64,000 nt of DNA from Eledone cirrhosa. Taxonomy: Eukaryota. Both the position numbers and the translations under genes were made by a program. Below are positions 28,016 through 48,427 of the stretch, piece by piece (within the stretch, counting starts at the first letter, position 1; every line of letters begins with the position of its first letter). The notes below the pieces were generated by a model, which was not told the DNA's origin, ran no database searches, and saw only the letters and a program-made list of their open reading frames with translations. The stretch lies in the NCBI GenBank assembly GCA_964016885.1, contig OZ024740.1, positions 276,644,001 through 276,708,000 of the forward strand. Direction: 5' to 3'.

Positions 28016-28020
<5 letters not shown>
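27524..28020. repeat. Left arm of a 497-bp inverted duplication (partner 34016-34511)
   Basis: Reverse-complement match with only a few differences. Inner ends abut (TA)n. Confidence 0.9.
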
Positions 28021-28065
<45 letters not shown>

Positions 28066-28541
28066 TAAACGGAATAGAAAATGCTGACAAATTGTTCACA
28101 GTTGAAAAATGGTTTAATTAGGAATAAAAGAGTATTAGTGATTGTATGGGTTAGTATTCAGTTGTGGTTTTAAGTTTTTAAGTTTTTACCGGTTGCGCAT
28201 TTCTAAATGCTTTTCAAAAATAATTTTGAGATAGAGTGTCCGTGCTGTTTGCTCTGATCTGATTAGTTTTGGGAATTCTACCTGTTTTTATGTTAAAAAA
28301 ATGGCTCCAGCGTTATTTTTGTGTTGTAAAAATGCTTGTGGTCAAAACAATTTTGATTGGTCGGTAGAGGTCATGTGAATGTAAAAAGTTGATTTTGCGC
28401 CAAGACTGTTTTTATGTTAAAATGTTAGAAAAGTGGCTCCAGCAAAGATTATGGTCAAAACAATTTTGATTGGTCGGTAGAGGTCATGTGGATAAAAAAT
28501 TGGTTTTGCGCCAAGATTGAGAAATGACTCTTTCACAACAA

Positions 28542-28595
<54 letters not shown>

Positions 28596-28653
28596 TAGTA
28601 GTAGTAGTAAGGTATTCGATGCTGCGACAATAGCCACCAGCGATGTGTGTCAA

Positions 28654-28882
28654 CCAACAACGTAGGCCACTTATAACACCACAATACAACATGGCACATA
28701 GAAACACACACCCATACTCGCAGTACAGGAACACCCCATTCAATCTACAACCACCAACCCGAACCACATTTTACAACAACAAGGAATATAACAAGCACAG
28801 GAGACCACTTAACATCAGCAGACAACCCCTCTACCCCAACCATTTTTTAGACACAGCACACAGATACAGGCAAACAAAATAA
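28654..28882 (+). other. 5'-truncated upstream open frame (N/Q/R/P/Y-rich) overlapping the RT frame, which lies at -1
   Basis: Stop-free from the truncation junction to TAA at 28880-28882. Contains CAT TTT TTA G at 28841-28850. Confidence 0.5.
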
Positions 28883-29019
28883 CACAAGACAGGGAGGAGA
28901 AACCGATAGTAATAAAAATTATCAATCTTACTAGTGCAGAACCAACACCCAACCTTATCAACTTACTCTCCAAAGGTCTTAAATTCACACCGACCCCACT
29001 ACGTCCTAACTACTATGAA

Positions 29020-31167
29020 ATGAAGGAAGACATCACAGACTTCTGTAGAAAGTTACGACTTAGTGAACAACTATTCGACCAGTACAATGAGGATGAATCA
29101 TTAGCCAGAAATAGAAGCAATTACACCCCTTCAAAAGGTAGAAATAAAATCCTGGACGAATTCTGTGAACACATCACAAACTTCCCTTACCAACACTTGC
29201 ACAGACAAAAACACAAGCCAAACCTCAACAAGAAAGAATGGGAAGAATTAAATAGATTAAAAACCGACAGAACCATTACAATTAAAGAGGCTGATAAAGG
29301 GAGTACAGTAGTCCTAATGGAGACAGAATTCTATATCAACTTAGCGCTCTCCACTTTGGAAAACGAAACATACTACGAAAAGGCTGAACACTACAATCAA
29401 CAGAAAATTATGAGAAACCTAAAAACTCTAATCAACCAATACAAAGAAGGACTCACTAACAAGGAATTCAGCTTCATCACAGACTTCACAAGTAAATCCA
29501 GCCTTTTCTACGGTATCCCTAAAGTACATAAAAGCGAATCAATCAGTAAGGCATGCAAGGAAGCCACAGACATAGTCATCAATGTCCCCTCACCCAATGA
29601 TCTCAAATTAAGACCTATAATAGCAGGCCCCGCTTGCGAAACGCACCGTCTTAGCAACTTCATTGATACCCTTCTCAAACCCTTCCTCAAGCACATCAAA
29701 AGCTATATAAGGGACGACCTAGATATGCTCAATCACCTCCCTAATATGCCACTTTCTGAACAAACCCTACTAGTGACGTTCGATGTAGTCAACCTATACT
29801 CCAACATCCCCCACAACCTAGGAATAGAAGCTATCCAATTCTGGCTGGATAACTTCCACAATGAACTCCCACAACGCATCAAAAAAGAATTCGTGATAGA
29901 GGGACTCAAATTTATCTTGGAGAACAATTACTTCGTTTTCAATAACAAACCCTACAGGCAGAAATCTGGGACCGCTATGGGAACGAAAACAGCCCCTACG
30001 TATGCCAACCTAGTCATGGGATACCTGGAAATCACCCTCTACACTAAAGTCCTAAACAAATTTGGAAACACCCTCCACTTACACATTGAAAGGAACTGGA
30101 AGCGATATCTTGATGACTGCTTCATCCTTTGGCACGAAAACATCGAAAAACTTAAAGAATTTCACACCCTTATAAATGGGCTCAACACAAATATTAACTT
30201 CACAATGGAATACAGCCAGCAACAACTCCCCTTCCTCGACATCCTCATTAAGATCCATAACAAAAAAATAGAAACAGACATATACTACAAGCCCACAGAC
30301 TCCAAGCAATACCTCCCCTTCAACTCTTGCCACCCTAGACACGTTAAAATTAATATTCCCTACAACTTAGCCAAGAGAATCTGTACTATAGTCTCCAATA
30401 AAAACATCTGCTACTTACGGCTACAAGAACTAAAGGACACACTCATAGGCAGGGACTACCCTGCATCACTAATTGACAATGGAATCCAACGTGCCCTAAA
30501 ACTCAGTACCCAGGACCTTAGACACCCTAAAGTAAATCAACCAAAACTAAAAGCTCTTCCATACATCTCCACACACAACCCCCTCAACAACGAGGCCTTT
30601 GACACCATCCTCCAGAACATCCCTGTATTGAAAAAGGACCATAGAATGAACCAAATTCTACGAACACACGATATCATAAAAAGCAAAAGACAATCCAAGT
30701 CAATGAAAAACATCTTAACACATGCCAAAGTACTGCCAACCACAACAACGAAACCCACAGTAAAAAAATGCGATAGACCCAACTGTGGCATTTGCATCAA
30801 CCTAATAGAGGGTTCGGAATTCTATTTCAAAGATGGACAACGTTTTATAGTAAAACACAATTTCACATGTGCATCGGAAAATTTAATATATGTATTAACT
30901 TGTTCAGGTTGTCGAGAACAATACATAGGCCAGACCAAAAACAGCCTCCGCCAACGCATGACTGTCCATAGATCCCAAATTAAAATACGGGAATACAGGA
31001 AAATACCACTGAGTGAACACATTGATACCTGCGCCGCCCAAAATCATCCCAACTTCAGAATCTTTCCCCTCTACAAATTTAAAGATAATGCCACCCACAC
31101 CCAGCGCATCAGCAAGGAATCTTACTTCATTAACAAATACGGACCCCGTCTAAACACTTCTCCCTAA
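29020..31167 (+). CDS. PLE reverse transcriptase + GIY-YIG endonuclease; frame open from 28813
   Basis: IKEADKG, FYGIPKVHK..RPII, FDVVNLY, QKSGTAMG, RYLDD, PFLD, IYYKPT, SCHP, Cys linker CDRPNCGIC, IYVLTCSGCREQYIGQT..RQRMTVH..EH..E..FI..P.LN. The upstream in-frame motif IINLTS..LLSKGLKFTPTP lies before the first ATG. Confidence 0.95.
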   Translation: MKEDITDFCRKLRLSEQLFDQYNEDESLARNRSNYTPSKGRNKILDEFCEHITNFPYQHLHRQKHKPNLNKKEWEELNRLKTDRTITIKEADKGSTVVLMETEFYINLALSTLENETYYEKAEHYNQQKIMRNLKTLINQYKEGLTNKEFSFITDFTSKSSLFYGIPKVHKSESISKACKEATDIVINVPSPNDLKLRPIIAGPACETHRLSNFIDTLLKPFLKHIKSYIRDDLDMLNHLPNMPLSEQTLLVTFDVVNLYSNIPHNLGIEAIQFWLDNFHNELPQRIKKEFVIEGLKFILENNYFVFNNKPYRQKSGTAMGTKTAPTYANLVMGYLEITLYTKVLNKFGNTLHLHIERNWKRYLDDCFILWHENIEKLKEFHTLINGLNTNINFTMEYSQQQLPFLDILIKIHNKKIETDIYYKPTDSKQYLPFNSCHPRHVKINIPYNLAKRICTIVSNKNICYLRLQELKDTLIGRDYPASLIDNGIQRALKLSTQDLRHPKVNQPKLKALPYISTHNPLNNEAFDTILQNIPVLKKDHRMNQILRTHDIIKSKRQSKSMKNILTHAKVLPTTTTKPTVKKCDRPNCGICINLIEGSEFYFKDGQRFIVKHNFTCASENLIYVLTCSGCREQYIGQTKNSLRQRMTVHRSQIKIREYRKIPLSEHIDTCAAQNHPNFRIFPLYKFKDNATHTQRISKESYFINKYGPRLNTSP

Positions 31168-31345
31168 GACGAACCCACAACATACACACGTCAACATACA
31201 TACCTACATCAGCACACATCTCTACCCACATATAAACACAATGACACACGTAAACACACATGCTCTATGGTGCAATACAAAAAAATATATGTGCATATAT
31301 ATGTATGTATATATGTATATATGTATATATATGTATGTAGTGAAA

Positions 31346-31383
<38 letters not shown>

Positions 31384-31599
31384 ATATATGTGTATATAGT
31401 GAATATCATTTCACACCTTTTATTGTTAAGATTGTTGATGTTCTATTAAGAGAACCGATTTTACTGAAAAAATCGAATAATGTACACCATTTTACCAGGG
31501 GGGGAAAAAAATACTGGTCCACCCACACACGCACACACACACACACACACATATATACACAGACACATACACACGCGTACATCAACATACAAAGAGACT

Positions 31600-31634
<35 letters not shown>

Positions 31635-31804
31635 TTCTCCGTATAAGACAAAAGCTGAAAAATATCTTTTGACCTTCGAATGACTCTGCTGTGTGTATGT
31701 ACGCACACACACACACACACACACACACACTTATCTTAATAGCCATTTGACACACATCGCTGGTGGCTATTGTCGCAGCATCGAATACCTTACTACTACT
31801 ACTA

Positions 31805-31858
<54 letters not shown>

Positions 31859-32181
31859 TTGTTGTGAAAGAGTCATTTCTCAATCTTGGCGCAAAACCAA
31901 TTTTTTATCCACATGACCTCTACCGACCAATCAAAATTGTTTTGACCATAATCTTTGCTGGAGCCACTTTTCTAACATTTTAACATAAAAACAGTCTTGG
32001 CGCAAAATCAACTTTTTACATTCACATGACCTCTACCGACCAATCAAAATTGTTTTGACCACAAGCATTTTTACAACACAAAAATAACGCTGGAGCCATT
32101 TTTTTAACATAAAAACAGGTAGAATTCCCAAAACTAATCAGATCAGAGCAAACAGCACGGACACTCTATCTCAAAATTATT

Positions 32182-32213
32182 TTTGAAAAGCATTTAGAAA
32201 TGCGCAACCGGTA
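32182..32213 (+). ncRNA. Variant hammerhead-like motif in the PLE-1 terminal repeat
   Basis: UUGAAAA-GCAUUU(AG)AAAUGC-GCAA-CCGG-UA, mirrored at about 28187-28218. Confidence 0.5.
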
Positions 32214-32373
32214 AAAACTTAAAAACTTAAAACCACAACTGAATACTAACCCATACAATCACTAATACTCTTTTATTCCTAATTAAACCATTTTTCAACT
32301 GTGAACAATTTGTCAGCATTTTCTATTCCGTTTACCAATATATAATAACTTGTGTGTTACACCTCTATTCTTT

Positions 32374-32421
<48 letters not shown>

Positions 32422-32491
32422 ATGTGTGTGTGTGTATCTCTCCACCACTCCCCTACACACCCTTTGAACTCTGTTCCCACACACTTCTCAC

Positions 32492-32520
32492 CCGAGGAAG
32501 GGCTTATGCCCGAAACGTTG
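32492..32520 (+). ncRNA. Minimal hammerhead motif in a short (TA)n-flanked insert (about 32435-32612)
   Basis: CCGAGGA-A-GGGC(UUAU)GCCC-GAAA-CG-UU, with AAUAAA downstream. Confidence 0.65.

Positions 32521-43956: not shown

Positions 43957-48427
<4,471 letters not shown>

Follow-up and report, generated by a model that had tools for sequence, protein, structure and literature searches.

The window analysed here is a stretch of 64,000 nucleotides of Eledone cirrhosa (contig OZ024740.1), in which the reverse transcriptase (RT) frame of a Penelope-like element (PLE) has no ATG ahead of a conserved N-terminal motif and overlaps the end of a second open frame. The question raised by this locus is how the RT and the endonuclease (EN) that follows it are translated. 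An earlier note, made from the sequence alone, had proposed a programmed -1 ribosomal frameshift (-1 PRF) at a T-rich heptamer; on re-reading of the sequence all of its coordinates were correct, and its interpretation is supported by comparison, through the fixation of the run of six Ts (T6) and the conservation of its phase beyond the family. Of the three outcomes that the note had named as refuting, none was obtained, the check for splicing being a weak one.

Identity and ends of the element

The element is a 5'-truncated copy of a young, recently amplified EN-positive (EN+) PLE (family A). Its RT-EN frame (28813-31167, + strand, -1 relative to ORF1; 784 codons from stop to stop) matched RVT_1 (E=4e-7, above the cut-off) and GIY-YIG (E=2e-6) in a Pfam search, and the PLE type of the RT was confirmed by the DKG (ADKG), YLDD and N-terminal NLS..KGLxFxP motifs. 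The N-terminal PLE motif IINLTS..LLSKGLKFTPTP (28918-28998, + strand), which lies upstream of the first ATG, is common to all relatives compared. A CX4CxxC linker of Neptune/Nematis type (CDRPNCGIC, 30769-30795, + strand, from the translation) was seen in 9/9 long relatives examined, the CX2-5CxxC linker being defined as in sections 3 and 6 of Craig et al. 2021 (PMC8557442), and it suggests that the RT-EN be grouped with this type, the RT tree comprising the loci of this analysis only. The C-terminal segment (30883-31152, + strand, from translation and Pfam) carries the GIY-YIG domain, with two cysteines between GIY and YIG; since this domain is within the RT frame, the element is distinct from the EN-negative Athena, Coprina and Terminon elements, in which no EN is fused to the RT.

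Of the 3' untranslated part (31168-32384, + strand), at least 31988-32384 recurs in full-length copies as a direct repeat (pseudo-LTR) immediately upstream of ORF1. An inverted copy of the 3' end of the element (31747-32409) occupies 28018-28653 (- strand; 95.5% identity over 663 columns by self-blast), at the 5' truncation point, and adjoins (TA)n; such an inverted 5' copy is a typical PLE arrangement according to Craig et al. 2021. The pseudo-LTR, the 5' truncation and the inverted 5' copy are all hallmarks of EN+ PLEs. Full-length copies extend about 1.1 kb further upstream than the window copy, which is cut at 28654. A within-family test of shared versus private differences indicated purifying selection on the RT (35 S/9 N versus 91/241); the same test was not significant on ORF1 (p 0.27, 0.31).

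The Rfam search gave no hammerhead ribozyme match and returned microsatellite noise only. A hammerhead-like core (a short helix then GAAA) was noticed by eye at about 32490-32520 (+ strand), beyond the mapped repeat; its start is non-canonical and a stem I is not evident. A similar stretch flanks one other locus (L053). The window also contains a second, distant RT and GIY-YIG-like element at 46060-47744 (+ strand), in two frames, 24-30% identical to the RT-EN described here.

Overlapping frames and slippery heptamer

The RT frame is closed by a TAA at 28810-28812, just 5' of its opening at 28813, and has its first ATG at 29020. The ORF1 frame is open until the TAA at 28880-28882 and overlaps the RT frame over 70 nt, so that two overlapping frames are found in place of the one ORF that encodes the whole protein of a canonical EN+ PLE. 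Inside the overlap, CAT TTT TTA GAC (28841-28852) holds the heptamer T_TTT_TTA (28843-28849, + strand) in the X_XXY_YYZ phase of the upstream ORF, as in canonical -1 PRF; a -1 slip at this heptamer enters the RT frame, reading FFRHST..., with a predicted fusion entry at 28849. The U_UUU_UUA heptamer is the -1 frameshift site of HIV-1 gag-pol. Chance does not account for it: when the 330 nt that precede KGL in a copy of the same family were dinucleotide-shuffled, phased TTTTTT[AG] came up in 2/300 shuffles.

The ORF1 protein

The upstream frame of the window (28654-28882, + strand) is the 3' remnant of ORF1 (codons ~361-436), ending in ...PNHFLDTAHRYRQTK before the stop; tblastn with the ORF1 of a full-length natural copy matched 28652-28879 at 98.7%. 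ORF1 has 436 aa in 11/14 translated full-length copies, of which the window keeps the last 76 codons. The upstream product is the 436-aa ORF1 and not the short basic product that had been proposed, which corresponds to its truncated end.

Residues 1-245 of ORF1 are predicted to be all-helical (pLDDT 85), and the rest is N/R/P/H-rich, basic and of low complexity, with a net charge of +23. Homologues in families B and D have 449 and 421 aa and are 27-39% identical, close relatives are annotated in Octopus species, and a profile search gave 903 clusters at 50% identity. ORF1 had no Pfam family, no PDB sequence match and no usable Atlas match, and the structure search gave no Foldseek match at E<=0.001; the best structural match (Z 9.0), to generic three-helix bundles, was rejected as uninformative. 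Scanning viral contigs and metagenome contigs with ORF1 gave no locus.

Length of the T-run among copies of the family

A search with the 447-nt junction gave 1,518 candidate matches in the 3.0 Gb assembly, the best 40 being near-identical, and six Ts were present in all 30 junction matches that were fetched (best matches, hence a biased sample). Among 388 genomic copies, counted as those with exact flanks around the T-run, seven Ts (T7) were found in 5 and five Ts (T5) in 9; exact T6 was counted by eye in 88 of the first 100 listed copies. T6 and the -1 offset are accordingly near-fixed, and the earlier caveat of a T-run indel can be set aside: T6 is not a private indel, and T7 is scattered over subfamilies. 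All 14 T7 and T5 copies were fetched. The five with T7 are all 5'-truncated and 91.7-99.7% identical to the reference copy; their subfamily variants also occur in T5 and T6 copies, and they do not form a single T7 group. The rare T7 and T5 copies fit sporadic slippage after insertion or assembly error.

These counts bear on the explanation that transcriptional slippage adds one U, or that rare single-ORF T7 copies are the true masters and T6 an inherited lesion. T7 copies do exist, one of them 99.7% identical with an open RT, and one database homologue of ORF1 (P0082) reads FFF into the RT linker. This explanation is nevertheless hardly credible: the T7 copies are all truncated and T5 is commoner, the insertion of a U needs no fixed phase and yet the phase is kept in 21 sites, and no full ORF1-RT-EN protein was found among the 150 best homologues (longest 706 aa).

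Conservation in other families and outside loci

Relatives were collected with the KGLKFTPTP pattern, which is blind to the slippery site and excludes family A. It gave 872 genome matches, of which 40 of the first 100 were fetched; phased TTTTTTA is kept in 18 of these 40 copies, from families B, C, D and H (RT identity among families A-D being 48-59%), the other 22 being truncated, mutated or with indels. In metagenome contigs the same pattern gave 22 loci, 17 of them with a PLE RT; matches without an RT match were dropped (5/22 metagenome loci, 2/3 genome loci and the one viral match). Phased T_TTT_TTR occurs in 15/17 metagenome PLE loci (10 TTA, 5 TTG), three of them decayed copies, and phased TTTTTTG in one further PLE on a contig of a metagenome-assembled genome (MAG), so that the total is 16/18 outside loci. 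The same phased heptamer, for which a search in PLEs from elsewhere had been suggested, is therefore present both in these loci and in families B, C, D and H.

The outside loci are 26-81% identical in the RT and include three small clusters; those with the heptamer, ending in TTA or TTG, belong to 11 lineages dispersed across the RT tree. Because they cluster by RT and share ancestry, the 18 loci represent roughly a dozen lineages and not 18 independent cases. The heptamer lies 102-258 nt before the KGLKF motif, at distances that are all multiples of three, and the shuffle chance of a phased heptamer is 0-0.09 per locus. An RT-frame stop stands directly 5' of the heptamer in 6/16. The two misses are a locus with neither T-run nor ORF1 match, probably truncated (L077), and a broken copy with an out-of-phase TTTTTTG (L078). 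On the MAG contig (L109, 3.9 kb, binned as Bacteroidota) the PLE RT-EN is intact and is accompanied by part of ORF1; the contig is probably a eukaryotic contamination of the bin.

Closer to the window copy, a 68-nt block that spans the heptamer (28819-28886, + strand) shows no listed difference from an ~88%-identical family of a related organism A (Logan contigs, 3 studies), at most 2 unlisted differences being able to fall inside it, and its flanks are ~15% diverged. This family of organism A has no frame-changing indel at the junction.

Alternatively, translation of the RT could begin anew close to where ORF1 stops, through reinitiation or internal initiation at an AUG that lies about 36 nt downstream of the first T of the run. 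Families D and H and one outside locus (L090) do have an in-frame ATG 12 codons past the site, and in family H it overlaps the ORF1 stop (ATGA). The corresponding position is however ATA in family A and GTG in family C, and is absent in family B; among the 12 uninterrupted metagenome loci, 8 lack any Met from the heptamer to KGL, and reinitiation leaves the invariant phased T6 unexplained. It is considered very improbable.

Sequence context of the heptamer

No conserved stimulatory hairpin was detected by local folding (z below -2 in 1/21 sites), and a simple H-type scan gave no pseudoknot in the 21 sites; by these two methods the hairpin or pseudoknot that canonical -1 PRF has 5-9 nt downstream was not found. 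The earlier remark that no hairpin was obvious downstream is in line with this result. A G-rich stretch instead starts 6 nt after the heptamer in relatives (28856-28864 in the window, + strand, weakly matched in family A). Its information content (+13 to +21 from the first T) is 0.60 versus at most 0.31 in other windows, a conservation matched in 0/1000 permutations, and it is position-locked to the heptamer. It may act as a linear stimulator, reflect a constraint on the encoded protein or belong to a splice site. The heptamer ends in TTG in 6/16 outside loci, a departure from the usual rule for slippery heptamers that Z is not G.

The main rival of a frameshift is splicing, in which the T-run would be the pyrimidine tract of a 3' splice site, the spliced mRNA would join an upstream phase-2 exon to the RT, and the unspliced RNA would retrotranspose. 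It deserves weight because of the common AG phase and the branch-point-like upstream bases: in 17/21 sites the nearest AG downstream of the T-run has phase 2 for the RT frame (+8 or +14 in 16), and a branch-point-like T-N-A often stands before the run (A at -1 in 14/17, T at -3 in 11/17). In addition, PLEs retain introns according to Craig et al. 2021, and ORF1 of family A contains a strong donor-like AAG/GTAATT. This donor is however in phase 1, so that splicing from it would lead back into the frame of ORF1, and no strong or shared phase-2 donor was found in ORF1 of families A, B and D with a rough home-made matrix. The AG next to the run is absent in 7/16 outside sites and in family B, the first AG of an intact relative (L091) is in another phase, and the run consists of exactly six Ts with no C in 20/21 sites, in T-poor sequence. 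At 28850, where a check for splicing had been recommended, contigs of 4 runs of organism A (whose RNA status is guessed) run across the junction, and neither a joint nor a loose end appeared there, which argues weakly in the same direction; no RNA run was listed as containing family A. Taken together, these observations make splicing unlikely.

Phe-Leu near the end of ORF1 homologues

A -1 frameshift at this heptamer would involve Phe and Leu codons, and Phe-Leu (FL) was counted in the 101 long-tailed homologues among the best 150 ORF1 homologues. FL occurs within the last 40 residues in 75/101, versus 7 in the preceding 40 taken as a control; some tail columns were included in the search profile, which may have introduced a mild bias toward FL. 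The residue before FL is never K, E, Q, M or W, the ones whose codons are unable to end in T (0/75, background 20.5%). The codon before FL encodes His, Asn, Tyr or Asp in 40/75. These four are the amino acids of queuosine tRNAs, and an E-site effect is possible.

Two of the 150 homologues (P0082 and P0098) continue into RT-like sequence, and a weaker search at longer lengths, like the 150 best homologues, yielded no full ORF1-RT-EN protein. The database protein P0098 joins ORF1 to the RT and omits the IINLS motif; a gene predictor that bridged the frameshift with an intron would give such a product. In the ORF1 tails of P0001, P0005-P0008 and families C, D and E, the pattern (R/Q)DT(R/G)W recurs downstream of FL in the frame of ORF1, and in several families it creates an ATG in the frame of the RT.

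Proposed expression strategy

The two-frame layout, fixed across copies, is conserved in distant relatives. Judged from these sequence comparisons, the RT-endonuclease of full-length copies is probably produced by programmed -1 frameshifting at the U_UUU_UUA close to the 3' end of the 436-aa ORF1. Most ribosomes would stop 10 codons past the heptamer and yield ORF1p, which with its predicted helical N-half and its basic, low-complexity C-half is likely to oligomerise and package RNA, and a minority would slip on Phe-Leu (tandem slippage, UUU UUR) to give an ORF1-RT-EN fusion of ~1,200 aa, the output of ORF1p and fusion setting a gag-pol-like ratio. As no conserved structure was found downstream, the slip is expected to depend on the U-run, which is slippery by itself, perhaps with help from the G-rich stretch 6-14 nt further on. 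The start of ORF1 is missing from the window copy, which would not itself produce the fusion.

More speculatively, the elements could form a large undescribed branch of EN+ PLEs, characterised by a helical ORF1 family peculiar to it and by -1 frameshifting at U_UUU_UUR that needs no structure and is stimulated by the linear G-rich element at its fixed distance or by ORF1p in trans. If true, this tentative extension would bring a gag-pol strategy into the sister group of telomerase, together with a new kind of natural frameshift stimulator.

The proposed frameshift would correct the description of EN+ PLEs as single-ORF elements and would point to the protein that probably packages RNA in this abundant and recently amplified family. 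When the RT is annotated from its first ATG, a conserved N-terminal motif is lost and ORF1 becomes an orphan protein. The hundreds of natural forms of the HIV-type slippery site, seemingly without a stem-loop, would also constitute a test set for slippage determined by the heptamer and its near context.

Comparison with known systems

The element resembles HIV-1 gag-pol in its U_UUU_UUA heptamer and in the logic of a structural protein followed by an enzyme, and differs from it in being a non-viral, non-LTR element, in having UUG variants and in that no downstream stem-loop was found. Among PLEs, an ORF1 set apart by a frameshift is probably a feature of the EN-negative Athena/Terminon elements. 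The legend of Figure 1 in Craig et al. 2021 (PMC8557442) shows a PLE ORF1 separable by a frameshift with a pseudoknot (CC denoting coiled-coil), and that passage gives no clade for it. Like these two-ORF PLEs, the element described here has its RT behind a helical, coiled-coil-like ORF1 in another frame; it is EN-positive, and no pseudoknot was found in it.

With Neptune and Nematis it shares DKG, the C-terminal GIY-YIG with two inner cysteines, the CX2-5CxxC linker, 5' truncation with an inverted pseudo-LTR and (TA)n flanks, and it departs from their single-ORF description by its two overlapping ORFs. Canonical EN+ PLEs are described as single-ORF in the abstract of Craig et al. 2021, and Arkhipova and Yushenova 2019 (PMC6431247) divide PLEs into those with a single ORF and EN, and those with two ORFs and no EN.

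Extra ORFs are nonetheless known in PLEs. An esterase has been reported in Neptune-like PLEs and in ORF1 of Penelope-like elements (Rodriguez 2017, PMC5408684; Schneider 2013, PMC3905857, relevant passages), and the killifish Neptune CL27 (PMC12602865) has two ORFs, described by the authors as non-overlapping. The extra domain in these passages is an SGNH esterase or unassigned, whereas ORF1 here is predicted all-helical with no Pfam or PDB match, and the same passages contain no mention of a frameshift. By eye, the supplement of PMC12602865 shows an esterase-like upstream ORF in CL27 and an RT frame at -1, opening two codons before a phased G_UUA_AAU that a GC-rich hairpin follows within ~6 nt. 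Passages of PMC3846280, PMC5718144, PMC6515669 and PMC11167929 add nothing on PLE frameshifting, and a search of the open-access literature gave no account of a slippery heptamer in an EN+ PLE.

The novelty implied by the earlier note holds in part: EN+ PLEs are described as single-ORF in the texts cited, but an ORF1 set apart by a frameshift already figures in the Craig et al. 2021 legend and esterase ORFs have been reported. The concept of frameshifting was thus foreshadowed for PLEs, and what appears to be new is this ORF1 family, the lack of downstream structure, and the breadth of the arrangement among EN+ elements.
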